DNA of 64,000 nucleotides from Chloroflexota bacterium (GTDB lineage: Bacteria; Chloroflexota; UBA11872; VXOZ01). The DNA lies in the NCBI GenBank assembly GCA_965221905.1, contig OZ244922.1, forward strand, positions 3,008,001 to 3,072,000, read 5' to 3'. This document shows positions 7,208 to 19,410 of this stretch, in pieces; within the stretch, counting starts at the first letter, position 1; every line of letters begins with the position of its first letter. Both the position numbers and the translations under genes were made by a program. The notes under the pieces were generated by a model. It worked only from the letters and a program-made list of their open reading frames with translations. It ran no database searches and was not told where the DNA came from.

Positions 7208-10200
7208 GTGTCCATCTTTCGCAGCGGCGCCGTGCCCAACAGCTCCTCTATCTCGTCCTCCACCTCCGGCGTCAGCGCAATCCGATCATGCGTATCTATG
7301 CGCACGTGCACTCCGTTGAGAATAATCCGCAGCGCAACGCGCGTGTCGCCGGGATTTCGGGTCAAGACGTTTGCGACCCGCTGCAACAGTCCCAAGTCCT
7401 GCGCGTCATCCGACGTGCGTTGGAGCACCAGCTCCACCTCCGGCCCCGTCTGATCTACGACATCCGCAACCGGCTGCATTTCCTGCTCAGGATCGGGTTC
7501 GACGCTATCGTTTCGCGGCGAAGCATCTGCGGTGGGTGCTGCAGGGGTCTCTGACTCTTCACCACTGGCAGCCACGGGTTCATCCACAACAGCGGGCCGG
7601 TCAGTGGGGACATCATTGTCGCCAAGAACCCATTCGGGCAAGTCACTGCCGCTGGCAGGCAGCGATGCGCCTTCCCTTACAGCTACCGTAACCGGCGGCA
7701 TTGCCGTGTCCGGCTCTTGCCGCTCTGCGACTGCATCGTCCAAGGGTGCCACGCTCTCCGCCAGGACTTTCATAACATCATCCCGGCTATCCTGTTCCAC
7801 GCGCCCCCGCAGGACAACAAAGTTGCCGTTCACAAGCAGTGCGGCCCGCTCCGCGTAGAGATTGGGGAAGACCGTAACGTCAATTTGGCCGCTCTCATCT
7901 TCTAAAGTAAGCAATGCCATATTCTGACCCTTACGGGTGAGTATCTTGCGCACAGACTCAACTCGCCCTGCCAGAGTGACCCGCTTGCCTTCTCTCTCTT
8001 TGGTGACTTCCGCAGTAGTAGTACCGGCCGCGGCATGCATCCGTTCGATATGCGGCTTGAAGGGGTTTTCGGAGAGGTAGTCGCCGAGCAATTCCTTCTC
8101 CCAGATGCCCTTCTCTTCCGGCGTGGCGGGTTCAGCTTGGGGCAGCGTAAAGCTCGTAAGCATGGCTGCCTGCTCCTCGCCAAGGAATGTCTCGAATAGC
8201 GTGGGGCCCTGGTTGCCTATGCTCTGAGCTTTCTGCGAGGACGCCAGCACGTCGTCCAAGCTCGCGAGCAGGGCGGCGCGATCCCCCATGGTGTCCAGCG
8301 CTCCCACTTTGATGAGGCTCTCCAGCGCGCGCCGATTTACAGCCCGTTGATCGATCCGGACGCAAAAATCATAAAATTCCTGGTATGGGCCGTCAGCGCG
8401 CTGTGCGGCGATAGCCTCTGCCGCCGCCGTCCCCACATTCTTCACCGCGGCAAGCCCGAAGTAGACCGTGCCCTCTTTGATGGCAAAATTGGATTCGCTC
8501 TCGTGCACACTCGGCGGCGCCACGGTAACTTTCAACCGGCGGCACTCGCGCACCGCTTCTACGATCTTGTCCGTGTTGCCGAGCTCGGTACTCAAGACCG
8601 CTGTCATATATTCGGTGGGGTAGTTGGCCTTGAGATAGGCGGTCTGATATGCAATCGTGCCGTAGCACGTAGCGTGCGCTTGATTAAATCCGTACCGCGC
8701 AAAGGGCTCGAAGTCGGCGAAGATCTCCTCCGCGAGCTTTTTCGACAAACCGTTTGCCACTGCGCCCTGGACAAATCGCTCGCGATGCTCCTGCAACTCG
8801 TGCGCAATCTTCTTGCGGACGGCGTAGCAGAGCTTGTCTGCCTCGGCCAGGGTGTAGCCGGCCACCGCCTGCGCCACAGCCATCACGTCCTCCTGATAGA
8901 CCATGATGCCGTAGGTGCGCTCCAGTACCGCTGACATCAGCGGATGCCGCGCCGTCGCCTTTTCGCGGCCATGCCGCCGCGCAACGTACTGCGGAATATA
9001 TGCCATGGGGCCCGGACGATAGAGCGCCACCAGCGCCATGACGTCCTCGATCCGGTCCGGCTGCAATTCCTTCACGTAGCGGCGCATGCCATCGGATTCC
9101 AGTTGGAAGACGCCGGTCGTCTCGCCCGAGGAGAGCAATTTAAAGGTCTTGCTATCGTCCAGCGGAATCTTTTTCAGATCGATGGACTCACCGCGCGTCT
9201 CCGCGATGAAGCGTACAGCGCGGTCCAGGACGGTGAGGTTGCGCAAGCCGAGGAAGTCCATCTTGAGCAACCCGATCTTTTCGATGGCGTTCATCTCAAA
9301 CTGGGTCATTACGCCATCGTCGCCCACGTTCCGCTGCAGGGGGACGTACTCGGTGAGCGGCTCGCGCGAAATCACCACCCCCGCCGCATGGGTGGATGCA
9401 TGGCGCGCCACGCCTTCCAGGTTCTTGGCCAGGTCAAGCAGGCGCTGCACCTGGGCGTCGTCCGCCACGAGTTGCTGCAGGTCTGGTGAATCCCGCAGCG
9501 CATCATCCACCGTGGACATGGTGGGGACCAGCTTCGCGACGCGGTCCACCTCGCCGTACGTCATGCCCAGCGCCCGACCCACGTCGCGCACTGCCGCCCG
9601 CGCCTTCATCGTCCCGAAGGTGATGATCTGCGCCACGTGATCGGCGCCGTATTTCTCCGTAACGTATTCGATGACCTCATTGCGGCGTACGTCCATGAGG
9701 TCTACGTCAATGTCCGGCATGGTGTAGCGCGAAGGATTGAGGAATCGCTCGAAGATGAGACCGTAGTGCAAGGGATCGATGTCGGTAATGCCGGCGGTAT
9801 AGCACACGAGACTGCCCGCAGCCGAACCCCGCACGGTGGTGGGTATCCCCTGCTCTTTGGCCCAGTTTACAAAGTCCGCCGCGATCAGGAGGTAGGAGGA
9901 AAAGCCCATTTCCCCGATCACGCCTAACTCGTATTCCAAGCGCTCGTGCGCGGCGGCATCGGGCTCGGCATAGAGCGCCGCCAAGCCTGCTGTGCACCGC
10001 TCGTGCAGGAACGTGCGCGCCGTATGCCCTTCCGGTACCTCGAAATGGGGCAGAATACGCTGGTCGAGGGCAAGCTCCACGTTGCAGGCTTCCGCAATTT
10101 TGACGGTGTTCGTCAGGGCTTCGGGAAACTCGGAAAAGATTTCCCACATCTCATCGGCGCTGCGCAGGTAGAACGCATCCTTCTCCATACGCATGCGGTT

Positions 10201-10899
10201 GGAGTCGTTCACATTGCTGTTCGTCTGGATGCACAGGAGCACGTCGTGGGCATCGGCATCCTCACGGCGGGTGTAATGCCCATCGTTCGTGGCAACCAGC
10301 GGCAGGTCGAGTTCCCTTGCCAGCTTCACGAGCTTCCCGGTAACTTCCTGCTCCCAGTCCATACCGTGGTCTTGGATTTCGATGTAGAAGCTATCCGGAC
10401 CGAACAGATCGCGGTAGCGGAGCGCCAATTCCCGCGCCTTGTCCTCGTTCCCGTCCCGGAGCGCCCGCGGAATCTCGCCCGCCGGACAACCCGAAAGGCA
10501 AATGAGACCCTCGTGATATTGCTCCAGCAGTTCGTGGTCCGCCCGCGGCTTGTAGTAGAAGCCTTCCAACTGCGCCTGCGTCGCCAGTTTGACGAGATTC
10601 TTGTAGCCTTGGTTGTTTTTCGCCAAAAGCGTGAGGTGGTATTGCCGGTCGTCTAATTTCGGCTCGCGGTCGAAGCGCGAGCGGGTCGCCATGTACACCT
10701 CGCAGCCCAAGATGGGCTTGATGTCCCGTTTGCGCGCTTCTTCATAGAACTCGATGGCGCCGTAGAGCACGCCGTGATCGGTGAGCGCGATAGCCGAAAA
10801 ACCCAGTTCCTTGGCGCGGTCCATCAACTCCGGCATGCGGCTCATGCCGTCCAGCAGACTGTAGTGCGTATGCAGATGCAGGTGGGTAAATTGCTTCAT
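7204..10899 (-). CDS. dnaE: DNA polymerase III subunit alpha
   Basis: PHP motif HLHLHTHYSLLDG, RGSAAGS, PDIDVD, KMDFLGL and a C-terminal OB fold. Confidence 0.97.
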   Translation of the reverse strand: MKQFTHLHLHTHYSLLDGMSRMPELMDRAKELGFSAIALTDHGVLYGAIEFYEEARKRDIKPILGCEVYMATRSRFDREPKLDDRQYHLTLLAKNNQGYKNLVKLATQAQLEGFYYKPRADHELLEQYHEGLICLSGCPAGEIPRALRDGNEDKARELALRYRDLFGPDSFYIEIQDHGMDWEQEVTGKLVKLARELDLPLVATNDGHYTRREDADAHDVLLCIQTNSNVNDSNRMRMEKDAFYLRSADEMWEIFSEFPEALTNTVKIAEACNVELALDQRILPHFEVPEGHTARTFLHERCTAGLAALYAEPDAAAHERLEYELGVIGEMGFSSYLLIAADFVNWAKEQGIPTTVRGSAAGSLVCYTAGITDIDPLHYGLIFERFLNPSRYTMPDIDVDLMDVRRNEVIEYVTEKYGADHVAQIITFGTMKARAAVRDVGRALGMTYGEVDRVAKLVPTMSTVDDALRDSPDLQQLVADDAQVQRLLDLAKNLEGVARHASTHAAGVVISREPLTEYVPLQRNVGDDGVMTQFEMNAIEKIGLLKMDFLGLRNLTVLDRAVRFIAETRGESIDLKKIPLDDSKTFKLLSSGETTGVFQLESDGMRRYVKELQPDRIEDVMALVALYRPGPMAYIPQYVARRHGREKATARHPLMSAVLERTYGIMVYQEDVMAVAQAVAGYTLAEADKLCYAVRKKIAHELQEHRERFVQGAVANGLSKKLAEEIFADFEPFARYGFNQAHATCYGTIAYQTAYLKANYPTEYMTAVLSTELGNTDKIVEAVRECRRLKVTVAPPSVHESESNFAIKEGTVYFGLAAVKNVGTAAAEAIAAQRADGPYQEFYDFCVRIDQRAVNRRALESLIKVGALDTMGDRAALLASLDDVLASSQKAQSIGNQGPTLFETFLGEEQAAMLTSFTLPQAEPATPEEKGIWEKELLGDYLSENPFKPHIERMHAAAGTTTAEVTKEREGKRVTLAGRVESVRKILTRKGQNMALLTLEDESGQIDVTVFPNLYAERAALLVNGNFVVLRGRVEQDSRDDVMKVLAESVAPLDDAVAERQEPDTAMPPVTVAVREGASLPASGSDLPEWVLGDNDVPTDRPAVVDEPVAASGEESETPAAPTADASPRNDSVEPDPEQEMQPVADVVDQTGPEVELVLQRTSDDAQDLGLLQRVANVLTRNPGDTRVALRIILNGVHVRIDTHDRIALTPEVEDEIEELLGTAPLRKMDT

Positions 10900-11154
10900 G
10901 TAGACACACCGCTCCTAAGATCGGCTCCGTGCCAAATGGGAAATTTTCTTGGTCTAGAATACCTGGACGGCGACGATAATGAAAGCGAAATTACGGTCTT
11001 GACGGAAGGTATTTTAGGGCCTCCAGGCCGCTCGATTCCGCCTACCGCAAGGATCTCGCAATGGTGGGGAAAACGTTCAGAATATGTGTAGCTTCCATGA
11101 GGGTTTCCAGCATCGAATTCCACTTCTGCTGTATGCGTGAGAAGCGGCAGTCTT

Positions 11155-11883
11155 CGTCATTCCGGCTTGCGCCGGATTCCATCTTGTCCAAGCCGACCCA
11201 ACTTCCGATAGTGCTATAGCAACCTCATTGAAACGGGAACCCCCCCGCCATCATCTCTTGCTGCAAAATTCCGCTCTAACTGCTCACGCCGGCGGCGAAT
11301 CGGCCCGTCATTCACGCAAAAGCGGGAATCCATTTTCCTCTTGTCAAGCGTACTGCAAGACACGTGTATGCCCGCCCACAACCAGGGCCGTAGTCGGAAA
11401 ATCCCCTCTCCATCGAGGAGACCTTTGCATAACTCCGTCAATCCGGCGAAAGCCGGAATCCAGAGCGGGGTGTGGGTAGACAGGGATTGCTTGTAGTGAG
11501 GCCGTTATTCACCCCCATCCCGACCTTCCCCATCAAGGGGGAAGGGGTATCGCAATGGTCTCATGTCGAGGGAGAGGGCAAGGGTGAGGGTGAGGGTGAA
11601 TCCTCGCCAGCAATGACCAAGCCCGTTCGCTTTGTCGAATTACGCGGAGGTTGCCAAGGAGGGAAAAGCCCCCGCGCAACCATGTTCCCAATGCCACTGC
11701 CATGAGTATTTGCCGCATTCCTCTCCGTCATTCCCGCGAAAGCGGGAATCCATCTTCTCCATGCAATTGCCCCTACCCTGCGAAGGACAAGCCACACGCC
11801 CTACGACCTACCCACCGCAATTCCTACAAGAAACAGCGCCAATCCTCTCCGTCTTTCCCGCGAAAGCGGGAATCCATCTTCTC
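11155..11883. repeat. Intergenic cluster of REP-like palindromes of several classes
   Basis: GTCATTCC-type units near 11155, 11306 and 11436, plus a 41-bp direct repeat at 11719-11759 and 11843-11883 (1 mismatch). Also ccctctcc/ggagaggg...gtgagggtga and cccccatccc...ccttcccc...gggggaagggg units. Confidence 0.85.
11418..11562 (+). mobile_element. MITE-like element (family B, copy 1) with GAGACC...GGTCTC ends, carrying two REP classes
   Basis: gagacctttgcataac ... tcgcaatggtctc. A colinear homologous copy lies in reverse orientation at 59519-59712. Confidence 0.65.
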
Positions 11884-11904
11884 TTCGACTTAAGGTATTC
11901 ACCA

Positions 11905-11939
11905 AACAGAAAAGTCCCGCTCCGCAGGAGCAGGACTTC
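11905..11939 (-). terminator. Intrinsic terminator downstream of the HesB/IscA gene
   Basis: Minus strand reads aagtcctgctcc-tgc-ggagcgggactt followed by ttctgttt. Confidence 0.7.
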
Positions 11940-11964
11940 ACCTTCCGACCTAAGAACAATTACG

Positions 11965-12324
11965 TCAAGTACTGCACGGCCTTGCCTCACCGGCGCTTTC
12001 TGCCGTATCGAAAGACTGACCGCACGAGCACGACTGCTCGGCATTAGGATTGAGGATAGTAAAGCCGCCGCCAATCAAGGCAGTGCTAAAGTCGATTTCC
12101 GAGCCGCTGAGGTACATCAGGCTGAACGGGTCCACAAAGACGCGCACTCCCCCGTCCTCGACCACCTCGTCACCCTCGTCCGCGCGCTCTTCCATGGACA
12201 TGCCGTACTGAAACCCGGAGCACCCGCCAGGCGACACAAACACCCGCAGCCCCGCCTCAGGATTCCCCTGCTCCGTCAGCAAGCCCTTCAAATGCTCCAC
12301 CGCAGTCGTCGTCATAGATAACAT
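11965..12324 (-). CDS. HesB/IscA/ErpA family Fe-S cluster assembly accessory protein
   Basis: GGCSGFQY and NPNAEQSCSCGQSF motifs. Start codon uncertain. Confidence 0.92.
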   Translation of the reverse strand: MLSMTTTAVEHLKGLLTEQGNPEAGLRVFVSPGGCSGFQYGMSMEERADEGDEVVEDGGVRVFVDPFSLMYLSGSEIDFSTALIGGGFTILNPNAEQSCSCGQSFDTAESAGEARPCST

Positions 12325-12506
12325 TGCAGACAATCCTACCGGTTCAGCGCAACGTAACTCTTCTAACCAATTCGTACCTCTACCGCAATCGTACTGATTC
12401 CAAGCCAAGTAGTCAAGCGGAAACACCTCACACGTTCTTCTGCCAAGGAGACTCGCATCACTCTACTCCTAAGAATCCAACTCCGCCCGGCTGCAGCATC
12501 TTGGGC

Positions 12507-12515
12507 TGATATACT
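12507..12515 (+). promoter_or_regulatory. Putative extended -10 promoter of the five-gene cassette
   Basis: TGaTATACT about 50 nt upstream of the first gene. Confidence 0.4.
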
Positions 12516-12569
12516 GGGATTATAGTAGTACATGCTAACTGAGTTGGGCGGGTAGAAGGAGTGGAGACC

Positions 12570-13043
12570 ATGAAACTTGGGCAATTATTCAAAGACGCAA
12601 ATCTGGACAAAATTAACCTGTCTACGACTGGAGTGAGTGCTGAGATATCTTTCAAGGCTACCGATAAGAACGCGGCCTGGGAGCTATACATTGAAATGTT
12701 GACGAGGATCGTCACTCAGCCTTTGCCAGAAGAAGCAGGAGACGAAAAGACCGCTCTCGATAGCGTCTACTCGCTGTTCCCAACCACCCGCGAGATATTA
12801 CGCAGGCATGGCCGCAAGGCAATTGAGTTCAGTAAGGTCGCAATTCCAGTCTTGAACCAGGTAGTTCGACCTTTTACCGCAAAGTGGCACAGAGAGTCCA
12901 TCTCCGGTGCGTTCGATGATCCGGCAATACGACAGGACTTTCGTGAAGAGCTCGCGATGTTACAAGTAGAGTTACGCAACTACAACAGCCTGCTGGCAGA
13001 CATCGCCGATGTAGAGGACTTAACGAACTTGGAAGAGAATTAA
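12570..13043 (+). CDS. Hypothetical, largely alpha-helical protein; first gene of the cassette
   Basis: Clean ORF with AGGAG/GGAG RBS and motif-like segments AWELYIEMLTRI, ALDSVYSLF and VLNQVVRPFTAKWH. Function unknown. Confidence 0.75.
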   Translation: MKLGQLFKDANLDKINLSTTGVSAEISFKATDKNAAWELYIEMLTRIVTQPLPEEAGDEKTALDSVYSLFPTTREILRRHGRKAIEFSKVAIPVLNQVVRPFTAKWHRESISGAFDDPAIRQDFREELAMLQVELRNYNSLLADIADVEDLTNLEEN

Positions 13044-13221
13044 GGGGGCATTAGAATTCACTTTCCACCAAAGAGAGCCAGGAGGAAAGTTCAGCCTAGA
13101 AAATACATCAATGCTGACATTAGCGCTGAAGGCGTATTCGAATTCTTAAAGGGGTCAGAGCATTGTGGGAGAATCGTATGCGCCATCAGTATGGTCTTTA
13201 TCAAAAAGGGAGTAGTCAAGC

Positions 13222-13701
13222 ATGTCTGAGAGCATCAAGAACGTCTTCATAAGCCACATACACGAGGACGATGAAGGAATTAGCCGAATCAAGAGCGTGG
13301 TCGAGGGGCAGGGCTTGACAGTCCGAGATAGTTCAATTACTTCGGACAAGCCGAATACAGCCACCAACGAGGACTACATCAAGTATCAAATCTTAGCGCC
13401 GCGAATCAACTGGGCGAGCGTACTAGCTGTCTACGTGTCTCCAGAAACTAAACAGAGCTGGTGGGTGAACTGGGAAATAGAATATGCCCACAAGCAAGGC
13501 AAGAGAGTCGTTGGTATATGGGAATGGGGAGCTAAAGGCTGTGAACTACCGGAAGCCCTCCATCGATATGGTGACGCGTTGGTCGGTTGGAATGGGGAAA
13601 GTATCATAGACGCAATAAACGGCGGGTCCGACAACTGGTACGGCCCAGATGGGTCGCAGCAAGAGCGTCGGGCAATCGCGCGCTATTCTTGTGCAAGCTG
13701 A
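13222..13701 (+). CDS. TIR-domain protein, ThsB/DUF1863 (MTH538-like) type
   Basis: NVFISH beta-A strand and SWWVNWEIEYA with the catalytic Glu, followed by GKRVVGI. Confidence 0.88.
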   Translation: MSESIKNVFISHIHEDDEGISRIKSVVEGQGLTVRDSSITSDKPNTATNEDYIKYQILAPRINWASVLAVYVSPETKQSWWVNWEIEYAHKQGKRVVGIWEWGAKGCELPEALHRYGDALVGWNGESIIDAINGGSDNWYGPDGSQQERRAIARYSCAS

Positions 13702-13708
13702 TTTTGCA

Positions 13709-14311
13709 GTGCCGAGACTGTTTTCTTACGTCGTTACTAGAGACTATGGGTTCGCCCCAAATCCATTTTACGGTTGTTGCACTTTGGCAACCTGTAAGCC
13801 ACGGATTAGAAACGTCGCTTCGATAGGAGATTGGATAATCGGTACAGGAAGCAAGAAGCAGGGGAGGGATGGATTCCTGGTCTTTGTCATGCAGGTTACA
13901 AAGACCATGACGTTCAACGAATACTGGAATAGTGATCGTTTTCGACCAAAGAGACCTAACTTAAGGGGTAGCATGAAGCAGGCCTTTGGGGACAACATCT
14001 ACTTCAACGACATTGCTGGCGAATGGCAACAACAAGACTCACATCATAGCTACAGAGACGGTTCGCCAAACCACTCAAATATTGCGCTTGACACTCAAAC
14101 TGATAGGGTCCTGATAAGCTCTAACTTTGTATATTGGGGTAAGTCAGGACCCAGAATTCCCCACCGCTTTAGAAACTACAACGGGACCGATATCTGCGCC
14201 GGTCGCGGCCATAAAAGCCAGTTTCCTGAGGCATTGGTCGAGGACTTTGTATACTGGTTTCAGTCACTAAGAGTAACGGGTTATGTGGACGCACCTTCAG
14301 AGTGGGATTGA
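13709..14311 (+). CDS. Nucleotide-modification-associated domain 2 (Nmad2)-like protein
   Basis: SYVV.RDYGFAPNPF.G.CTLATCKP.IR...IGDWIIG signature, GDNIY and VLIS..F.YWG. GTG start 7 nt after the TIR stop. Confidence 0.8.
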   Translation: MPRLFSYVVTRDYGFAPNPFYGCCTLATCKPRIRNVASIGDWIIGTGSKKQGRDGFLVFVMQVTKTMTFNEYWNSDRFRPKRPNLRGSMKQAFGDNIYFNDIAGEWQQQDSHHSYRDGSPNHSNIALDTQTDRVLISSNFVYWGKSGPRIPHRFRNYNGTDICAGRGHKSQFPEALVEDFVYWFQSLRVTGYVDAPSEWD

Positions 14312-14370
14312 TCATCTTCAGGACTAAGATCAGCTTGGGGTCAAGTTAAGACAAAGGAGAATTATATCTC

Positions 14371-15492
14371 TTGCAGTTGCTAAATGACTATGTGACAGCG
14401 ATTCAACGCACCGACAAACTTCCTCACAATGATCTTCAGCCTGTCCTACTGGGCTTGTTTGGTGAGGTCGGCAGCGTAATGGCTACAGCCAAGAAACGTC
14501 ACCGAGAGGATGCAGCTTACGCCGGATATCAACAAGCACTGGAAGAAGAATTCGGTGACGTACTATGGTATTTTGAGGCACTGTGCCGACGCCTGAACTC
14601 TAATTTAGCCGAACTATTCGAAGTCGCGATGGGTCGTAGCGATTACGAGACTGCCTCCTTCGAGAGCAACCTAACCAGGGACATTCCTTCGCTCGCTTTG
14701 CCAGCCCCAAAACCGCAACTGCTAAATGTAGCGTTGTTGGAATTAGGCAAAACGGTCTCTGTCTTGCTCGATTCCGCGGGCCGTAATGAAGAAACAAAAT
14801 CCATGCTCTACACGTTCGCTGATCGCTATTTGCAGGCTATTCAGGCAGCTCACGTGAGTTTTCCAAAGATTGTCGGAATTAATGCTAATAAGGCATGCGG
14901 ACGATTTCTCGATCCTGATATTCCATCCCTACCTACCTTCGACAGCGACTTCCCTGAAGAAGAGAGGCTTCCTGATTACTTTGAGATCAAGATCACCCAA
15001 CGAAAGAGTGGCCAATGTTACCTACAGTGGAACGGCGTATTCATTGGCGATCCTCTCACGGACAACATCAAGGAGCCAGATGGTTATCGGTTCCATGATG
15101 TATTCCATTTGGCGCACGCTGCCGTGCTTCATTGGGCACCCACTTTCCGGTCGCTCATAAAACAGAAGCGAAAGAGTGATCCGAAGGTCGACGAGGCCCA
15201 GGATGGCGGCAGAGCAATTGTCATTGAGGAGGGGCTCAGTGCCTGGTTGTTTTCACGCGCAAAACTCCTTGACTTCTTTGAAGGTCATGACAGCGTATCT
15301 TTTGATTTGCTGAAGACCATACAGCAGTTTACACAAGGATATGAGGTAGAAGAGTGTCCTCTACGTTTGTGGGAGCAGGCGATCCTGCAAGGTTACGAGG
15401 TTTTCAGAGAAGTGCAAAAAAACGGTGGCGGCGTGGTAATAGGTGATCGAAATACTCGCACTATCAAGTTTAGGCCACTAAACGAGGAATAG
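14371..15492 (+). CDS. MazG-like nucleotide pyrophosphohydrolase with MazG C-terminal domain
   Basis: GLFGEVGS...KK..RE...EEEFGDVLWY, and C-terminal GDPLTDN...DGYRFHDVFH...KRKSDP.VDEAQDGGRA.VIEEG. AAAGGAG RBS before a TTG start. Confidence 0.85.
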   Translation: MQLLNDYVTAIQRTDKLPHNDLQPVLLGLFGEVGSVMATAKKRHREDAAYAGYQQALEEEFGDVLWYFEALCRRLNSNLAELFEVAMGRSDYETASFESNLTRDIPSLALPAPKPQLLNVALLELGKTVSVLLDSAGRNEETKSMLYTFADRYLQAIQAAHVSFPKIVGINANKACGRFLDPDIPSLPTFDSDFPEEERLPDYFEIKITQRKSGQCYLQWNGVFIGDPLTDNIKEPDGYRFHDVFHLAHAAVLHWAPTFRSLIKQKRKSDPKVDEAQDGGRAIVIEEGLSAWLFSRAKLLDFFEGHDSVSFDLLKTIQQFTQGYEVEECPLRLWEQAILQGYEVFREVQKNGGGVVIGDRNTRTIKFRPLNEE

Positions 15493-15494
15493 TA

Positions 15495-16154
15495 ATGAGG
15501 CTTGTCCGATTTGTTGAGAGACTGAGCGACTTGAGTCTTGAGAACACCTTTAATCCCTATGCCGAGCGATGCGTTGTTCACGACCGAGATGACGCGCCCC
15601 AATACCGGTCGAGTACACTGCTGAAAATACTTGAGAGAGCTTCAGCGCAGGAGATAGATTCCATTTGGATTGGTCGCGACCTGGGTTATCGAGGGGGAAG
15701 ACGGACTGGGCTCGCATTCACAGACGACATGCACTTCCGCGCTCACGCCGCGAGGTGGGGACTATCAGCCAGTCGGCCAACTATGGGCAACCCGGTAAAG
15801 GAACGCACGGCCGCCGCAGTCTGGAGCGCCCTTTCAAGAATTGAACAATCAGTTTTTCTTTGGAATGTGTTTCCGCTACACCCGCATGAGCCAAATAACC
15901 CATTTAGCAACCGCTCTCACAATAGGCTTGAGAAGCAAGTTGGGGAGAATCTACTCTCTCAACTCGTTTCGATTCTCCGCCCCAGTCGGCTAATTGCAAT
16001 TGGGAAAGTTGCTGAACAAACAGCACACAATTTGGGCTGCTCCTATAAGGTAGTTCGCCACCCCAGCTATGGGGGACAAACGGAGTTCCTAACGCAAGTA
16101 GCTGAGTTGTACGACCTGCCAGATCGCTACCAGAGCGTGCTTTTTGAGCAATGA
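15495..16154 (+). CDS. Uracil-DNA glycosylase superfamily protein (divergent)
   Basis: FNPY, IGRDLGYRGGRRTGLAFTD (motif A variant), WNVFPLHPH, SNR, AIGKVA and RHPSYGG (motif B). Confidence 0.82.
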   Translation: MRLVRFVERLSDLSLENTFNPYAERCVVHDRDDAPQYRSSTLLKILERASAQEIDSIWIGRDLGYRGGRRTGLAFTDDMHFRAHAARWGLSASRPTMGNPVKERTAAAVWSALSRIEQSVFLWNVFPLHPHEPNNPFSNRSHNRLEKQVGENLLSQLVSILRPSRLIAIGKVAEQTAHNLGCSYKVVRHPSYGGQTEFLTQVAELYDLPDRYQSVLFEQ

Positions 16155-16383
16155 AGGTCGGACCTCAGCGGCGAATTCTGATCCCGGACCTCAACATTCT
16201 CGCGAATCCTTCAGCTTGAAGTGACTGAGATTTCTGTCAGCCTTTTGGGAGATGGCTGGCCCAAATCGGCAGCCGTCGCAGACCAAAAGCCGTAAAGTGA
16301 TTTGCTGGCATGCCCTTAGCCCCTAGAACAAGCTCGCGGGTTGGACCTACCGGCATTGCCTAAGCCTACCATGCCACAATTGC

Positions 16384-16413
16384 TTGACGCTTTGGGTTTG
16401 CTTTGCGTAGCAT
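16384..16413 (+). promoter_or_regulatory. Sigma70-type promoter of SRP RNA
   Basis: TTGACG-N18-TAGCAT immediately upstream of the RNA 5' end. Confidence 0.6.
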
Positions 16414-16421
16414 GAGTCATG

Positions 16422-16692
16422 AGGCCGTGCTAGACGGGGAACTAGCGGTGCCCTGAACCCGCAATCCGCTATAGCGGGGTTGACAGCTTTCCATGAGGTT
16501 TGTGTTCCTTGAAGGCTGCTGCGAGGTAGCGGCGTTGATGGCTGGGTCTTGCGCGGCGAGAGGCCGTGAACCCCGTCAGGTCCGGAAGGAAGCAGCGGTA
16601 AGCGGTTACTCTCGGGTGCCGCAAGGAAGCTTGGCCGGAGCTAGCGCCACGTGGGCGCTTCAGGGAGCAGGATCGAAGGAAAGGCACGGCCT
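16422..16692 (+). ncRNA. ffs: Large (Alu-domain) signal recognition particle RNA
   Basis: Conserved helix 8 tcaggtccggaaggaagcagc, terminal pairing aggccgtgc/gcacggcct, 5' Alu-like gtgctagacgggg..tagcggtgccctg. About 270 nt, upstream of dnaX. Confidence 0.93.
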
Positions 16693-16927
16693 CATTTCAT
16701 CTACCTCACCTCGGCGTTTCGGGTACGTCATCGGCAACCAGGAGTAGCCTGATTCTGCCTGCGTGCCGATCCCGGCCCCACCCAATGCCCTCCCGCCTTC
16801 GCACGCATGGCGCGCTCCCGGGGTCCGACTTGTCCCTCGTCCACCCCAGAATTAGCCTTGCCCGTTCTTTTTACAGGGCCGTAGTCCGAGGCGTGGCGCG
16901 AAGATGGATTCCCGCTTTCGCGGGATT

Positions 16928-17191
16928 TGTAAGTGTTGAGTAATTCGTTGACAGAATTCGCTTTCCACCAGGCAGTGTTGACCGATTATGTCATTCCGAG
17001 CGGGCAGCGGCCCCGTGCGAATCACGGGGAGGAATCTGGAGTCCATGTCGCATCTAGTCCAATAGGCTCAGCACTTTAGATTCCTCTCTGCGCTACGCTT
17101 CGATCGGAATGACATGTGTGCAAGGCATGCACGACACGTCGCTTATCTTCTCTTTATTGAAAATCTGTCAACGAATTACCTGACACCTACA
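16928..17191. mobile_element. MITE-like element (family A, copy 2) inserted in a REP
   Basis: Left end tgtaagtgttgagtaattcgttgacaga, right end tctgtcaacgaattacctgacacctaca. Flanks ggatt/ggagt rejoin to ggattcccgctttcgcgggaNtgacgg. Internal tgtcattccgag...cggaatgaca doublet. Confidence 0.78.
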
Positions 17192-17340
17192 GGAGTGACG
17201 GACCCAAGTACCCTCCTCGTTCCCCGCAGCCGGCACTCCAGATTCCCCGCAGGCGGCACTCCAGCGACGTTTGGCGACGGATTTCTCAGGCCACCTGGAT
17301 TTTTGCGGACCGAAGTTCACTTGACCTCGTTAACATTGAC

Positions 17341-17370
17341 TCTAGATTCCTCGCTGCGCTCGGAATGACG
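17341..17370 (-). repeat. REP-like unit (GTCATTCCGAGCGCAGCGAGGAATCT class)
   Basis: tctagattcctcgctgcgctcggaatgacg. Confidence 0.75.
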
Positions 17371-17492
17371 TACAATTCAACATAGAGGCGGCTTAGAGTT
17401 TCTATCGACTGACTTCGGTGAATTCTTGCCATCACAGCGTTCGCCAAATAACAAATAGCGTGCGCTAACCAAATCGAGGAGATACTGCATCG

Positions 17493-19190
17493 GTGTCGCG
17501 GGTGGTGTTGTACAACAAGTGGCGGCCGCAGACGTTCGCCGACGTGGTCGGCCAGGAGCCTACGGTACGCACGCTGCAGAACTCCCTGGCAACGGGGCAG
17601 GTAGCGCACGCCTACATCTTCGCCGGGCCGCGCGGGTCGGGCAAGACCTCGCTGGCGCGCATCCTGGCAAAATCCCTCAACTGCCTGCAGGGCGTTCAAC
17701 CCGAGCCGTGCAGCAAGTGCGACGCGTGCACGGACATCGTGGAAGGCCGCTTTCTCGACCTCGTTGAACTCGACGCCGCCTCAAACCGTGGCATCGAGGA
17801 CATTCGCAGCCTGCGCGAGCGCGTAAACTTCGCGCCGGTGAGCGGCCGCTACAAATTTTACCTCATCGACGAGGTGCACCAACTCACGCCGGAAGCGTCC
17901 AATGCGCTCCTTAAGACGCTGGAAGAGCCGCCGGAACACGCCGTATTCGTGCTGGCAACTACCGAAATCCACCGGGTGCTGCCCACCATCCTGTCGCGGT
18001 GCCAGCGGTTCGACTTCCGACGCATTCCCGTGCGGGCGCTGGTGGGCCGCTTGCAGGAGATTGCCGCAGCGGAGAAGGTGAGCGCGGAAACGGAAGCGCT
18101 GAACATCCTGGCGCGCATGGCCGGCGGCAGCGCCCGCGACGCCGTGAGCCTCTTCGACCAGGCCGTCATCTACGCCGCCGGTGACGTGACCGCCGCGAAA
18201 GTGCGCGAGATGTTGGGATTGGCGCACACGGCGGTCGTGGCTGAATTCGTCGATACGCTGGCCCGCCGCGATACTAAGGAAGGCCTGCGCGTCCTCGCCC
18301 AAGCCGCCGACCAGGGCCTGGACATGCGGCAGTTCGCGCGCGAAACCATCCGCTACCTGCGCGGCACGCTCCTCCACAAGAGCGGCATGGAGGCTGCCGA
18401 ACTCCTCGAAATGAGCGAGGAAGAAGCCACGCTCATGGATGGCCTGGCCGGGCGGATTTCGCTCTCCGAAATCGTGCAGGCCATTCGCCTCTTCTCAGAA
18501 GCCGAACAGTCGCTGCGCTTAGGAGTCTTTCCACAGCTACCTATCGAGCTGGCATTGGTGGAGTTCTGCACCAATGCTGGAACCCAAGGCACAGCAGCGG
18601 CTCCGGCACCAGCCGCCCGGCAAGCGACTGCGGCACCCCGCCAGCAAGCGGCAAGAGCGGCGCCTCCGCCAAGCAAAACCGCTGTAGAGAGCCCAGCGGC
18701 AGAGAGCCCCAGCACAACGGACTCCGTTCCTAGAACGAGCGGCACGCCCGCTGAAACTCGACCCGATGCATCGCCAGCGGACGGACCGCCGCCAGCCGCA
18801 AGCTTGGATGACTCGCCGCTGGCAGAGATCCAGCAGCGTTGGGATGCCGTGGTCGACTCTTTCCGCAGACCGAACGTGCATTTGCGCGGCGTGCTGCGCG
18901 ATTGCACACCGAAGTCCGTGCGCGACCGATTGTTGACGCTGGAGTTTGCCCACGGCTGGCACCGCGACCAGGTGCGCCAGCCAGACAATCTCATTCTCGT
19001 GGAGAAAGCCATCGCGCAAACCATCGGCCGCCATTTCTCCATTGAGTGCACGCTGGCGCCAAAAGAATCATTGGAAAGTCTCTACGAGAAAGACCCTGCG
19101 CAGGATCCGGTAGTGCGCAAGGCTCAGCAGCTCTTTCCAGGTACCACCACCTATGAAAACTCCGATGAGGATACGCCCCCTTCCGCATAA
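17493..19190 (+). CDS. dnaX: DNA polymerase III subunit gamma/tau
   Basis: KWRPQTFADVVGQ, GPRGSGKTS, zinc module cysteines, IDEVH, LLKTLEEPP and SRC, followed by an Ala/Pro-rich linker. Confidence 0.97.
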   Translation: MSRVVLYNKWRPQTFADVVGQEPTVRTLQNSLATGQVAHAYIFAGPRGSGKTSLARILAKSLNCLQGVQPEPCSKCDACTDIVEGRFLDLVELDAASNRGIEDIRSLRERVNFAPVSGRYKFYLIDEVHQLTPEASNALLKTLEEPPEHAVFVLATTEIHRVLPTILSRCQRFDFRRIPVRALVGRLQEIAAAEKVSAETEALNILARMAGGSARDAVSLFDQAVIYAAGDVTAAKVREMLGLAHTAVVAEFVDTLARRDTKEGLRVLAQAADQGLDMRQFARETIRYLRGTLLHKSGMEAAELLEMSEEEATLMDGLAGRISLSEIVQAIRLFSEAEQSLRLGVFPQLPIELALVEFCTNAGTQGTAAAPAPAARQATAAPRQQAARAAPPPSKTAVESPAAESPSTTDSVPRTSGTPAETRPDASPADGPPPAASLDDSPLAEIQQRWDAVVDSFRRPNVHLRGVLRDCTPKSVRDRLLTLEFAHGWHRDQVRQPDNLILVEKAIAQTIGRHFSIECTLAPKESLESLYEKDPAQDPVVRKAQQLFPGTTTYENSDEDTPPSA

Positions 19191-19410
19191 CGATTCTCAA
19201 AGAGATGGGCCGACGGACGTGACGGGGAGCCTGCAACGGGGCGGCTCTCGTTCAAGACCCGCATGGGCAAGTGCATTGCCTCTTGGAAAAGAGCGCCGAA
19301 GTCGATGCAATGGTACATTAAACAGGTAAAATTGCAGAATTAGCGGCCCGGCGCAAATGGGTTCGCGGCCGGGCGGTGTGCGGCGGCATAGTGCAAAGGA
19401 GATCTGAACC

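Follow-up and report, generated by a model that had tools for sequence, protein, structure and literature searches.

Do the genes lodged between hesB and ffs in this chloroflexotal genome form a single defence system, and what might such a system act against? They lie in a low-GC island of approximately 4 kb (12420..16382, no strand assigned) within the window, by which we mean the whole 64-kb stretch of DNA analysed, and encode a helical protein (g1), a ThsB-type TIR, Nmad2, a MazG/MazG_C enzyme and a UDG-fold protein. Both flanks belong to the core genome: a hesB/IscA-type Fe-S assembly gene on the left (11965..12426, minus strand; PF01521, Fe-S_biosyn, E 6.2e-19) and the large SRP RNA gene ffs on the right (16425..16689, plus strand; RF01854, 207.8 bits), with dnaX (17493-19190, plus strand) downstream of ffs. 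An earlier note on this DNA had described a cassette of five co-oriented genes between hesB and ffs-dnaX, which is where the Fe-S_biosyn match, the RF01854 match and the dnaX reading frame place it. All five genes are plus-strand open reading frames, and the last four are packed as described, with gaps of 7, 59 and 2 nt given the Nmad2 start at 13709, while 178 nt separate g1 from the TIR gene. Spacing of 2 to 59 nt among the last four suggests that they are co-transcribed. Promoter and terminator scans gave a signal no better than chance, and RNA support consists of low-depth metatranscriptome contigs of one study, which may contain DNA.

The island is foreign and was horizontally acquired. 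Its GC content is 49.6%, against 59.0% in the remaining window and 64.0% in dnaX, and it is the 3963-bp stretch of lowest GC within the 64 kb; the lower GC reported previously is therefore real, although the spot counts then used overstated the size of the contrast. One metagenome contig, whose shorter side spans just 30 bases, fuses 12419 to 16383 and lacks the island. Among the 12 same-genus genomes examined, all keep hesB and ffs at one locus (ffs identity 91-99%); the intervening site is empty, at about 0.2 kb, in two and holds other cargo in ten. This cargo includes g1 with a ThsB-type TIR in four genomes and a KAP NTPase in a further four, the single one of which that was scanned against PADLOC matched PDC-S20, as well as an MTase-HNH protein and a RelA_SpoT protein (PADLOC PDC-S33), each scanned in one genome. 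The hesB-ffs site is thus a variable hotspot for defence-type genes in the genus. The cassette itself is patchy and mobile: MazG_C occurs in one of 16 other same-genus genomes and in none of 24 same-class genomes, and is carried by 35 plasmid records, including 18 conjugative ones. Elsewhere the cassette sits amid type I restriction-modification genes (hsdM, hsdS or hsdR, named from reading the sequences) in seven loci, four of which have hsdM upstream and hsdS downstream, and further neighbours match DISARM, Hachiman, a BREX helper and ThsA. Many of its closest neighbours are housekeeping genes or transposases. The defence-like setting proposed earlier is supported both by the defence-type neighbours and by the cargo of the hotspot.

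The first part of our question, that of unity, is addressed by gene order. We compared 82 cassette loci, which by record title include members of Latescibacterota, Acidobacteriota, Alpha-, Beta- and Gammaproteobacteria, Binatia, Dehalococcoidia, Planctomycetia, Nitrospira, Bacteroidota, Omnitrophota, Spirochaetia and Thermodesulfobacteriota. A ThsB-type TIR partner is present in 75 of them, and in all 75 loci having both genes the TIR adjoins Nmad2. Nmad2 in turn shares a locus with MazG_C in 75 of 77 loci with room upstream (adjacent in 58), and UDG adjoins MazG in 71 of 78 with room downstream. Where there was room on both sides, the order TIR-Nmad2-MazG/MazG_C-UDG was tight and colinear in 50 of 73 loci, so the co-occurrence elsewhere that the earlier note looked to as a test is very strong. 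Since the same order recurs in dozens of loci across many phyla, it exceeds chance, and the core is a four-gene operon of ThsB-type TIR, Nmad2, MazG/MazG_C and UDG, which has stayed together in many bacterial phyla. The five-gene unit first proposed has to be reduced accordingly, as g1 occurs in just 17 of the 82 loci. A frequent companion in other genomes, overlooked by the earlier note, is a TIR + SLOG-cluster-2 protein, which accompanies the cassette in 46 of the 82 loci. It had no match in this genome, in a search that was equally silent in every control genome, so the copy in the window may lack a component or may work differently.

Profile, Foldseek and PADLOC searches had been named earlier as checks; the profiles recognized ThsB_TIR, Nmad2 and MazG_C, and UDG barely above its cut-off. 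The TIR (159 aa; 13222..13701, plus strand) matches PF08937 (ThsB_TIR, E 1.8e-21) and, over the full length of the model, the PADLOC ThsB model PDLC00418 (E 6.3e-66). The catalytic glutamate noted previously in WVNWEIEYA corresponds to E85, which 38 of the 39 TIRs in the alignment retain. Nmad2 (200 aa; 13709..14311, plus strand; PF18753, E 1.5e-69) is taken to start at the GTG at 13709, as in its homologues; the longest reading frame opens at 13649. Its structure model (pLDDT 92.6) returned an ASCH domain as the top Foldseek match (E 5.4e-3, probability 0.94), followed by YTH, THYN1 and McrB N-terminal domains among others, and 23 of the best 24 matches in a second, independent fold search were PUA-like or modified-base-binding (Z 3.5-7.7). 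Both searches are dominated by reader domains of the ASCH, YTH, EVE, McrB N-terminal, VcaM4I and PD-T4-3 kinds, with matches of intermediate strength (Z at most 7.7; Foldseek E 5e-3), and a Z below 8 may reflect a common arrangement only. Nmad2 thus models as a PUA-like (ASCH/YTH/EVE) modified-base-reader fold, an assignment that is new here; all 47 sequences compared carry C29, W42, Y72, Y98, W106 and H113.

Also new is the prediction that Nmad2 binds the TIR directly. The complex scored 0.88 (median of three runs), against 0.00 for the best of three controls, with partner pLDDT of at least 93 and contact agreement between runs of at least 91%; in calibration the mark was reached by 58 of 80 solved complexes and by 2 of 110 mismatched pairs, counts which apply only roughly here because our own alignments were used. 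The modelled interface on the TIR comprises residues 90-93, 113-120, 137-139 and 146-158, so that Nmad2 would be held by the conserved C-terminal tail of the TIR. Rare longer proteins join Nmad2 to NOV_C (endonuclease-like), PIN, TIR, SLOG cluster 2 or MazG_C. Fusions to nuclease-type domains such as NOV_C and PIN suit a sensor better than an effector. By its fold, its predicted complex and these fusions together, Nmad2 looks like a TIR-bound reader or sensor rather than a signal-activated effector.

The two downstream genes encode putative nucleotide and DNA enzymes. The MazG/MazG_C protein (373 aa; 14371..15492, plus strand; MazG_C E 3.3e-81) is laid out as an all-alpha NTP pyrophosphohydrolase domain of the MazG or dimeric-dUTPase type (residues 1-180), sub-threshold in Pfam as MazG (14.7 bits versus a cut-off of 22), followed by MazG_C (187-369). 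The N-terminal half aligns with the Campylobacter jejuni dUTPase 1w2y over 155 residues at Z 12.2, a value of about 12 being in the uncertain range for helical bundles according to the search tool, with the dimeric dUTPase entry 5myd at Z 11.9 and with the MazG 1vmg at Z 7.0; to DCTPP1 it shows 24-28% identity (Foldseek probability 0.89-0.97). With dimeric dUTPases as its closest fold matches, it resembles these enzymes, which had not been noted before. E32, E60 and D63 of the MazG domain are invariant in 78 of 78 sequences, as are H242, D243, K266, R267, D278, R281 and E287 of MazG_C, whose invariant His, Asp, Lys and Arg point to catalysis. Whole-protein searches gave no fold match to the MazG_C half, all their rows being occupied by the N-terminal domain; one paper predicts MazG_C to be a nucleotide kinase. 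The UDG-fold protein (219 aa; 15495..16154, plus strand) passes PF03167 narrowly (24.5 bits versus 24.3), and its best profile match to a solved UDG, the family-4 enzyme 4zbx, is weak (E 0.21). It carries invariant GRD(L)G, FLWN and RHPS motifs, with D62, N124 and H189 kept in 38 of 38 sequences, and relatives on two plasmids are annotated 'uracil-DNA glycosylase'. In four loci (L003, L012, L020 and L063) it is swapped for a 5-hmdU-DNA-kinase-like protein (helical domain E 1.6e-111). The invariant Asp, Asn and His motifs and this replacement are new observations, and putative catalytic residues are conserved in all four core proteins.

With a defence role inferred from context and domains, we grant an even chance to the reading that the operon is an anti-phage system whose targets are pyrimidine nucleotides and DNA of a non-canonical kind, probably derived from uracil or modified in some other way, and in which Nmad2-TIR serves as sensor and NADase. 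Nmad2, mounted on the C-terminal tail of the TIR, would sense a modified base in DNA or as a nucleotide and turn the TIR on; NAD+ would then be cleaved, leading to NAD+ depletion or to an ADPR-derived signal. The dimeric-dUTPase-like MazG domain would hydrolyse the non-canonical dNTP, and the UDG-fold protein would strip the corresponding base from DNA. We counted in favour of the uracil theme the affinity of the MazG domain to dimeric dUTPases, the invariant UDG motifs and the 5-hmdU-DNA-kinase-like substitute. Of the two mechanisms raised in the earlier note, an attack on modified or non-canonical bases is thereby favoured, whereas Nmad2 as a signal-activated effector fits poorly with its reader fold, its predicted TIR complex and its fusions. 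Nmad2 as candidate sensor is a directly testable proposal.

The other mechanism, which the earlier note gave first, would amount to classical Thoeris-type signalling, in which the TIR alone senses infection and an ADPR-derived messenger activates Nmad2 or MazG_C to deplete nucleotides, with g1 or TIR-SLOG as a further receptor. The full-length ThsB match and the conserved glutamate speak for it, as does the position of Nmad2, since Thoeris effectors are usually recognized by lying next to ThsB (Yirmiya et al. 2025 preprint); SLOG domains of type I Thoeris bind TIR signals according to the same preprint, TIR + SLOG proteins are present in over half of our loci (46/82), and a nucleotide ligand could in principle fit a PUA-like pocket. 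We nevertheless consider it unlikely. The high-confidence predicted complex would make a diffusible signal between TIR and Nmad2 unnecessary, the NOV_C and PIN fusions suit a sensor better, and PADLOC recognizes no known Thoeris effector among the five proteins, in line with the earlier note; nor do the terms 'glycosylase', 'pyrophosph' and 'nucleotide modification' appear in the main text of the preprint. Distinctly unlikely, in our estimation, is that two or three independent modules (g1 + TIR, Nmad2, MazG + UDG) merely lie side by side in a defence island. Parts of the cassette do occur separately: g1 with a ThsB-type TIR at the hesB-ffs site of the four same-genus genomes, and MazG/MazG_C with UDG, lacking TIR and Nmad2, on a Tardibacter conjugative plasmid. 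Moreover, a TIR-SLOG gene stands between TIR-Nmad2 and MazG-UDG in ten loci, and the two pairs are divergent in one (L034). Against this stand the near-constant company of Nmad2 and MazG_C (75/77, adjacent in 58/77), the tight colinearity of all four genes in 50 of 73 loci from many phyla, spacing that suggests co-transcription, and one recorded protein which combines Nmad2 with a partial MazG_C domain.

House-cleaning and repair are the classical roles of MazG-type enzymes and UDGs, and DNA base hypermodification pathways are the setting in which the Nmad and MazG_C families were first named. The cassette might serve its mobile element rather than defence, by ridding transferred DNA of dUTP and uracil, or of a damaged base, or by taking part in base hypermodification. 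On the Tardibacter plasmid the MazG-UDG pair lies directly 3' of T4SS, coupling-protein and LPD7-domain genes, a placement which a DNA-sanitizing or plasmid-protecting role fits as well as defence; ArdA and ArdC genes occur near the cassette, as do transposases, and some loci hold thymidylate-kinase-like and 5-hmdU-DNA-kinase-like genes. We regard this reading as very unlikely, in that a ThsB-type TIR in 75 of 82 loci, with frequent TIR-SLOG, has no place in a repair or modification pathway, the hesB-ffs site is a defence hotspot, and we noticed in the cassette neither a hydroxymethylase nor a glycosyltransferase nor any other base-modifying transferase. Against 50,697 phage records Nmad2 had no match and the MazG/MazG_C protein matched over just its first 18%, in two records; judged by this lack of homologues of Nmad2 and MazG_C, the cassette is apparently not a phage pathway.

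The sensor-NADase reading may be placed among known systems. In short Argonaute-TIR systems a sensor subunit is bound to the TIR and NADase activity is the output, which is the logic proposed here for a nucleic-acid or nucleotide sensor; the sensor folds are unrelated, and activation by oligomerization would be pure analogy. Such TIRs are cited as NAD+-depleting effectors by Yirmiya et al. (2025 preprint), who name Thoeris types I-XI, each combining a ThsB TIR with an effector. The cassette shares with Thoeris the ThsB-type TIR with its catalytic-position Glu, the location in defence islands and, in many relatives, extra TIR genes plus a SLOG-domain protein. It differs in that its TIR adjoins a reader-like, putatively TIR-binding Nmad2 with no known effector match, and in adding two nucleotide/DNA enzymes, as known here from genes and models. 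Type III Thoeris, with several TIR proteins, a SLOG-domain effector and unknown signalling (van den Berg et al. 2024, via the Yirmiya et al. preprint), has a possible counterpart in the TIR + SLOG-cluster-2 proteins, fused or split, beside or inside the cassette and often with extra ThsB-type TIR genes; that partner is the one for which the search, silent in the control genomes too, gave no match in this genome. With type IV restriction enzymes Nmad2 shares a reader-type fold (McrB N-terminal, 6p0g; VcaM4I, 6yex; PD-T4-3, 9u75; Z 3.5-6.6) and rare fusions to NOV_C or PIN, except that the reader's partner here is a TIR enzyme on a separate chain instead of a nuclease. Residues 1-180 of the MazG/MazG_C protein share the fold of dimeric dUTPases, MazG and DCTPP1, and the UDG-fold protein shares conserved Asp, Asn and His motifs with uracil-DNA glycosylases; unlike house-cleaning enzymes, the MazG domain is fused to MazG_C, and the operon's patchy distribution, mobility, tie to a TIR and low GC set it apart from housekeeping dut and ung genes. 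Literature searches found no experimental characterization of the TIR-Nmad2-MazG/MazG_C-UDG combination, in agreement with the earlier note. DeWeirdt, Mahoney and Laub (Science 2026; PMC13092281) present eight predicted systems and state that validation is lacking for the uncharacterized domains highlighted in them, which include MazG, MazG-C and a nucleotide modification associated domain. Compared by domain names, these share the vocabulary of MazG, MazG-C, NMAD and UDG with the cassette, UDG appearing only among the abbreviations in the legend of their Fig. 6F; 'TIR' is absent from their main text, whereas the cassette has one.

There remains g1 (160 aa; 12561..13043, plus strand), which probably begins at the ATG at 12570. 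Searches of Pfam, PADLOC and NCBIfam assign it to no family. It has 4593 relatives at E<=0.001, and the 120 listed among them are all devoid of precomputed Pfam domains. In a phylum sample a TIR gene adjoins g1 in nine of ten g1-bearing genomes, and g1 pairs with other ThsB-type TIRs where the remaining cassette is missing. It is thus a member of a separate TIR-associated family, an optional TIR partner outside the core operon, and in our reading it would act as an accessory or effector module linked to the TIR. Some relatives have an N-terminal hydrophobic stretch resembling, by eye, a membrane helix, and others carry a C-terminal patatin-like phospholipase.

A four-gene operon, recurring in an order that is far beyond chance, forms the core of the cassette. 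ORF calling returned the five + strand ORFs at the positions given in the earlier note, namely g1 (12561-13043, 160 aa), TIR (13222-13701), Nmad2 (13709-14311), MazG/MazG_C (14371-15492) and UDG (15495-16154). The start of g1 is probably the ATG at 12570, because its close relatives are 157 aa long; for Nmad2 we took the GTG at 13709, as in homologues, the longest ORF opening at 13649. With the chosen starts, the gaps between successive ORFs are 178 (g1-TIR), 7, 59 and 2 nt. None of the five proteins matched an NCBIfam model, and in PADLOC the TIR alone had a match.

The recurrence of the operon was gauged through its MazG/MazG_C protein, for which 4827 relatives were found at E≤0.001 among the 8000 candidates scored, many of them 60-65% identical. 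MazG_C was found in one of 16 other genomes of the genus and in none of 24 genomes of the same class, and 35 plasmid records carry it. Scanning one genome per species for a sequence pattern gave 157 stretches, of which 119 encode a relative; the best 80 of these 119, taken with up to 6 kb on each side, and two loci from the same-genus genome G014 make up the set of 82 loci. With tblastn and clustering of ORFs, Nmad2 was located in 78 of them, TIR in 75 and UDG in 74. Wherever TIR and Nmad2 both occur they are side by side on the same strand (75/75); where 700 nt of sequence was available downstream (78 loci), UDG lies no more than 150 nt behind MazG in 71. Among the 77 loci with enough sequence upstream, Nmad2 lies ahead of MazG by at most 150 nt in 58 and is somewhere in the locus in 75. 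A tight, colinear arrangement of all four genes is seen in 50 of the 73 loci that extend far enough both ways, and record titles place the loci in many phyla. Co-occurrence beyond the window is thus established for a four-gene core; the earlier note had proposed a five-gene module, and g1 does not stand as a constant member of it, appearing in only 17 of the 82 loci.

Two pairs, TIR-Nmad2 and MazG-UDG, are the natural subunits of the cassette. Ten loci have a further gene between the pairs; in L034 they are divergently oriented, and in L007 and L041 they lie several kb apart. On a conjugative plasmid of Tardibacter, immediately behind T4SS genes, a more distant MazG/MazG_C clade (~41% identity) is accompanied by UDG only. 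A few copies look damaged: MazG carries an internal stop in L030, Nmad2 is broken across two ORFs in L026 and L071, and the UDG gene of L015 has a stop three codons before the end of the aligned stretch, all of which may reflect decay or assembly errors. G014, the only genome of the genus besides that of the window to contain MazG_C, has two copies of the cassette on separate contigs (L002 on C364 and L003 on C344) in a genome that is 69% complete. One copy includes UDG; in the other no UDG was found, and an ORF resembling a 5-hmdU kinase lies just beyond a shorter MazG/MazG_C ORF.

The TIR protein matches ThsB_TIR (PF08937, E 1.8e-21) and the PADLOC ThsB model (PDLC00418, E 6.3e-66, model positions 3-155 of 155). 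The glutamate of its WVNWEIEYA motif, E85, had been singled out in the earlier note; it is kept in 38 of 39 aligned sequences, and, following that note, we take it to be the catalytic residue. Nmad2 matches PF18753 at E 1.5e-69 (234 bits, cut-off 26.1) over positions 2-196 of the 200 in the model. Searching the PDB by sequence and by profile turned up nothing usable for it; a confident structural model (pLDDT 92.6, pTM 0.89) served for fold comparison. Foldseek placed an ASCH domain first (5y6b, E 5.4e-3, probability 0.94), followed mostly by ASCH, YTH, THYN1 (EVE) and McrB N-terminal domains. In a second search of 48,161 chains, independent of Foldseek, 23 of the top 24 rows were PUA-like or modified-base-binding domains (Z 3.5-7.7, 78-144 residues aligned), among them YTHDC1 (7.7, 132 aligned), ASCH (6.8), VcaM4I (6.6), THYN1 and the McrB N-terminal domain (both 5.6) and PD-T4-3 (3.5); the remaining row was a large DrmA chain (Z 5.6). 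All of these Z values are below 8, a range which may reflect a common arrangement, and the case is made by the consistency of the list. Such domains read modified bases, m6A, m5C and 5hmC being named in the entry titles. The models thus suggest a reader-like fold of the PUA-like (ASCH/EVE/YTH) kind, and the invariant aromatic residues F15, F20, W42, Y72, Y98 and W106 would be compatible with the binding of a flipped-out modified base.

Domain fusions point in the same direction. Eleven longer recorded proteins join Nmad2 to other domains, which include NOV_C (presumably a restriction-endonuclease-like domain), PIN, two TIR domains (in two proteins), SLOG cluster 2, MazG_C and Nmad3. By sequence, this is the fusion pattern of a putative sensor module, and it argues for a functional tie to the operon neighbors. 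A direct contact between the members of the pair is confidently predicted: the modeled TIR-Nmad2 complex scored 0.88, against 0.00 for the best of three controls, with partner pLDDT of at least 93 and contacts agreeing by at least 91% between runs. In calibration this mark was reached by 58 of 80 solved complexes and two of 110 mismatched pairs, counts that apply here only roughly, since the complex was modeled with alignments of our own. The predicted interface on the TIR side is a conserved C-terminal tail beyond the Pfam TIR core. Residues 113-118 and 146-158 of TIR and 84-93 and 111-116 of Nmad2 are among those placed at the interface. We know of no solved complex of this kind.

The second pair would consist of two enzymes. 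In the MazG/MazG_C protein, Pfam finds MazG_C at 271.8 bits (PF18722, E 3.3e-81, cut-off 29.7) over positions 3-188 of the 190 in the model, and the Pfam MazG model scores 14.7 bits on the N-terminal half, below its cut-off of 22. Profile searches of the PDB matched the protein weakly (iMazG 2q73, E 0.017; DCTPP1, E 0.24). The modeled fold of residues 1-180 was closest to dimeric dUTPases (1w2y, Z 12.2, 155 residues aligned at rmsd 3.0; 5myd, Z 11.9), values to be read with the caution that Z below about 13 is uncertain for helical bundles; MazG (1vmg, Z 7.0), YpjD, DCTPP1 and iMazG came next. DCTPP1 chains matched the same residues with a Foldseek probability of 0.89-0.97 at 24-28% identity. 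Acidic residues, which we take to be metal ligands, are conserved (E32, E60 and D63 in 78/78, E59 in 77/78 and E46 in 74/78). The model suggests, then, a helical-bundle, dUTPase-like enzyme with intact motifs. The MazG_C half is dense in invariant His, Asp, Lys, Arg and Glu. No fold match was obtained for it, both searches with the whole-protein model having been filled by the N-terminal domain, and the protein atlas gave no usable match once PF18722 was excluded. DeWeirdt et al. (PMC13092281) call MazG_C a predicted nucleotide kinase.

The UDG-fold protein matches PF03167 marginally (24.5 bits against a cut-off of 24.3), and its profile finds the family-4 UDG 4zbx only weakly, at E 0.21. All 38 sequences aligned share its motifs G60-R61-D62-x-G64, F121-L122-W123-N124 and R188-H189-P190-S191. 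Family-1 UDGs have, in the corresponding motifs, their catalytic Asp, an Asn that reads uracil and a His for the leaving group, and we assume that GRDxG, FLWN and RHPS are the counterparts of GQDPY, Asn and HPS. With these motifs intact, the sequence is like that of a UDG enzyme.

Around the core, the partners vary. The commonest extra gene, in 46 of the 82 loci, encodes a TIR_2 domain with SLOG cluster 2 (PF18163, E 1.1e-57), either as one protein of ~680 aa or as two of ~400 and ~300 aa. The position of this TIR-SLOG gene varies: it may be downstream, between Nmad2 and MazG, or upstream in either orientation. Further ThsB-type TIR genes often accompany it. The window holds no TIR-SLOG homologue; PF18163 also went without a match in the 3.52-Mb genome of the window, a search that was equally without a match in 14 of 14 control genomes. 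Four loci (L003, L012, L020 and L063) lack UDG and have instead a protein with the 5-hmdU-DNA-kinase helical domain (PF18723, E 1.6e-111); thymidylate-kinase-like genes occur in five loci, and TIR is preceded in four Dehalococcoidia loci by a small protein that matches PADLOC PDC-M50A (E 3.6e-32). Seven cassettes sit among type I restriction-modification genes, with hsdM upstream and hsdS downstream in four of the seven, the hsd names being assigned by reading of the sequences. A survey of the 146 nearest flanking ORFs of at least 150 aa counted 37 TIR-SLOG, 15 g1, five hsdS-like, four kinase-like, three TIR and three 5-hmdU-kinase-like genes. From the remaining neighbors, 69 (at most 800 aa and outside the named clusters) were scanned, and included seven more TIR_2 proteins, one SIR2+STALD ThsA, DrmA/DrmD, HmaA, BrxH, a phospholipase effector and PDC-S20, as well as transposases, ArdA, ArdC and ordinary metabolic enzymes.

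The gene upstream of TIR in the window, g1, belongs to no Pfam family. It has 4593 relatives at E≤0.001, and a precomputed Pfam domain was recorded on none of the 120 matches listed. Ten of 401 sampled genomes of the phylum contain it, and a TIR-family ORF adjoins it in nine of these: five are Pfam-verified and outside the genus, one is that of the window, and three are same-genus ORFs accepted by likeness to the verified ORF of genome G004. L111 has g1 without an adjoining TIR, and L112 repeats the full five-gene order of the window. Divergent members (L035, L048, L056, L066 and L067) have, by eye, an N-terminal hydrophobic stretch like a membrane helix, and others form the N-terminus of ~900-aa proteins with a patatin-like phospholipase domain; in the one scanned, L025, this domain scored just under its cut-off (PF01734, E 4.4e-6, 27.5 bits against 27.7). 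With its TIR adjacency and variable fusions, g1 behaves like a modular domain that serves TIR systems as sensor or adaptor, and the pairing of this family of ~4600 relatives with TIR genes makes it a further candidate for an effector or receptor domain linked to TIRs. A relationship with DUF6650 (PF20355; ThsG, the type VI Thoeris effector) was suggested by a protein-atlas score of 0.84, short of the 0.9 level; none of 27 g1-family members matched PF20355 in hmmscan at E≤10, and hhalign against three DUF6650 proteins gave a probability of 9.4% over 65 columns, which leaves this putative link as a lead only. A divergent g1-like protein (49% identity over 80 residues) was also noted in L113 (genome G170, 1318-2684), following a canonical 279-aa TIR_2 protein with a weak C-terminal match to Cas_csx3 (E 3e-4).

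The cassette resides in a low-GC island at window positions 12420-16382, the lowest-GC stretch of 3963 bp in the 64 kb. The flanking genes named in the earlier note, hesB (11965-12426, - strand), ffs (16425-16689, + strand) and dnaX, were all found, hesB by Pfam and ffs as a large SRP RNA at 207.8 bits. That note was also right in the direction of the GC difference and overstated its size, the measured values being 49.6% in the island, 59.0% in the rest of the window and 64.0% in dnaX. We compared the window with the 16 other genomes of the genus, the hesB-ffs interval being taken from 12. Both hesB and ffs are present in all 12, and because the content of the interval differs among them, hesB-ffs is a variable hotspot with defense-type cargo, in which the cassette is housed. 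Two genomes (G016 and G001) have no cargo, hesB lying ~0.2 kb from ffs. In G004, G013, G008 and G015 a g1 homologue (75-80% identical) is followed directly by a 187-aa ORF, which on scanning is ThsB_TIR in G004 (E 4.7e-17) and by reading is near-identical in the other three; g1 is thus cargo of the hotspot and outside the core genome. After this pair come a Hypoth_Ymh protein in G004 (scanned; a look-alike ORF in G015 by reading), an N6/N4 methylase fused to HNH in G013 (scanned; a look-alike in G008 by reading), and in G008 a RelA_SpoT protein matching PADLOC PDC-S33 (E 3.5e-119). G005, G007, G011 and G012 carry a KAP-family NTPase, the single one scanned with PADLOC matching PDC-S20 (E 3.7e-105), and G003 and G010 carry ORFs without a family. 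In all same-genus inserts GC is below that of the flanks.

The island bounds were fixed by one metagenome contig in which position 12419 is joined straight to 16383; its shorter side has only 30 bases, and it agrees with the empty form of the site. No tRNA was detected at 9000-20000 of the window, and a tRNA-linked integration site is accordingly not indicated. Scanning 12300-16500 for promoters and terminators gave about what chance would (five found against 3.5 expected, and five against 4.2), and we draw no operon boundary from it. Short low-depth contigs from two metatranscriptome runs of one study cover parts of g1, TIR and UDG at 94-100% identity and leave Nmad2 and most of MazG uncovered; such contigs cannot show absence and such libraries may contain DNA, and we counted them neither for nor against an operon transcript. 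Short repeats flank the region at ~11400-11640 and ~16880-17205. Both match dozens of places in this and same-genus genomes at ~70-96% identity, their translations being the recurring 'RKRESIF' and 'IPAFAGMTE' peptides of spurious ORFs, and they are probably REP- or MITE-like. Proteins of ~406-425 aa without a Pfam family also recur at the hotspot, one alone (L093:1145-2422, in G003) and one beside the methylase-HNH gene (L089:3751-4971, in G013), with a similar N-terminal sequence adjoining g1-TIR in L109; they are possibly an uncharacterized restriction or defense protein.

Elsewhere in the genome of the window, at G000:C1:2612325-2613605 (L100 and L102), two ThsB_TIR matches (E 1.3e-24 and 1.0e-16) lie ~1 kb apart and may represent a second TIR locus; the first match contains a TGA.

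Assigning a function to the cassette invites comparison with Thoeris, with which it shares a ThsB-type TIR and its conserved glutamate. Unlike Thoeris, and as the earlier note had observed of the canonical effectors, it offers PADLOC no ThsA or other described effector among the four non-TIR proteins; those sought beside the TIR included SIR2-SLOG, Macro-TM, caspase-like, DUF2270 and DUF6650 proteins. The PADLOC version, of 2023, predates newer Thoeris types, and DUF6650 was checked apart for g1. Pfam likewise found only Nmad2, MazG_C/MazG and UDG on the non-TIR proteins. Type III Thoeris combines several TIRs with a SLOG effector, of which the SLOG-domain protein of many related loci is a possible counterpart. 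A classical Thoeris signal with Nmad2 or MazG_C as its effector, which would make use of the ThsB-like TIR, seems to us rather unlikely. It is improbable that the operon merely juxtaposes independent modules: the pairs do come apart at some loci, and the conserved order and the Nmad2 fusions speak of a shared function. A sanitizing or modification role on behalf of mobile elements would suit the plasmid records and a dUTPase-like enzyme, and is quite improbable; no homologue of this Nmad2 or of MazG_C was found in 50,697 phage records, which disfavors a phage-type DNA-modification pathway.

Anti-phage defense as such is, in our judgment, a probable role, and we class the cassette as a putative TIR-based defense combined with nucleotide-directed enzymes. 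Its target would be a pyrimidine that phages make and that derives from uracil or is modified in some other way. Nmad2 would sense this pyrimidine and activate TIR, whose output would be NAD+ loss or a signal, and the MazG and UDG enzymes would attack the nucleotide pool and DNA. For this model as stated, with Nmad2-TIR sensing and a MazG/UDG attack on non-canonical pyrimidines, the chances appear to us about even. A more elaborate reading, unlikely if taken as a whole, is that the cassette performs pattern recognition of phage-specific modified nucleotides: the MazG domain and the UDG-fold enzyme, beyond destroying non-canonical dNTPs and bases, would release the modified dNMP or free base, the PUA-like Nmad2 would capture the released product and switch on its bound TIR, and TIR would deplete NAD+ or emit a signal for g1 or TIR-SLOG partners. 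If true, this would be immunity set off by a viral metabolite, as opposed to a viral protein or DNA ends.

Modified DNA bases are a main phage escape from restriction enzymes, and the known host answers to them are mostly modification-reading nucleases. The operon is widespread, with many phyla represented and more than 4800 relatives of the MazG/MazG_C protein alone, and would offer another kind of answer: a reader-like protein coupled to a TIR enzyme, along with enzymes acting on the nucleotide pool and on DNA. Nmad2 and MazG_C, families named in comparative genomics by the Aravind group, would thereby acquire concrete, testable roles.

The cassette is a computationally flagged candidate system. 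DeWeirdt et al. (Science 2026, PMC13092281) count MazG, MazG-C and a nucleotide modification associated domain among the uncharacterized domains of eight predicted systems, state that none of the uncharacterized domains highlighted there had been validated, and include NMAD and UDG among the abbreviations in the legend of their Fig. 6F. A report of domain-centric discovery (PMC13069673) makes no mention of MazG, Nmad, UDG or glycosylase. Our literature search found no experimental work on this combination; the supplementary tables and figures of the Yirmiya preprint and of DeWeirdt et al. may list the operon. New here are the four-gene definition, the Nmad2 fold and the predicted TIR complex, as well as the dUTPase likeness, the TIR-SLOG and g1 partnerships and the hotspot.

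Two plasmid loci merit description. On plasmid pHSL4 of Tardibacter chloracetimidivorans (L118, 4984-7853), MazG/MazG_C and UDG occur without TIR or Nmad2, directly after virB9-virB11, a coupling-protein gene and an LPD7-domain gene, with an AbiEii toxin gene nearby; other Sphingomonadales plasmids have MazG/MazG_C matches in the same identity class, and the MazG-UDG pair may have a role of its own on conjugative plasmids. The full cassette is present on the conjugative plasmid pBIND01 of a cultured type strain, Beijerinckia indica ATCC 9039 (L117, 2754-7769), where the four core genes run from BIND_RS19120 to BIND_RS19105, with a divergent 361-aa TIR protein and a 222-aa hypothetical protein upstream and an integrase, a VapBC pair and a DEAD/DEAH helicase nearby, which makes pBIND01 a convenient experimental source of the cassette.
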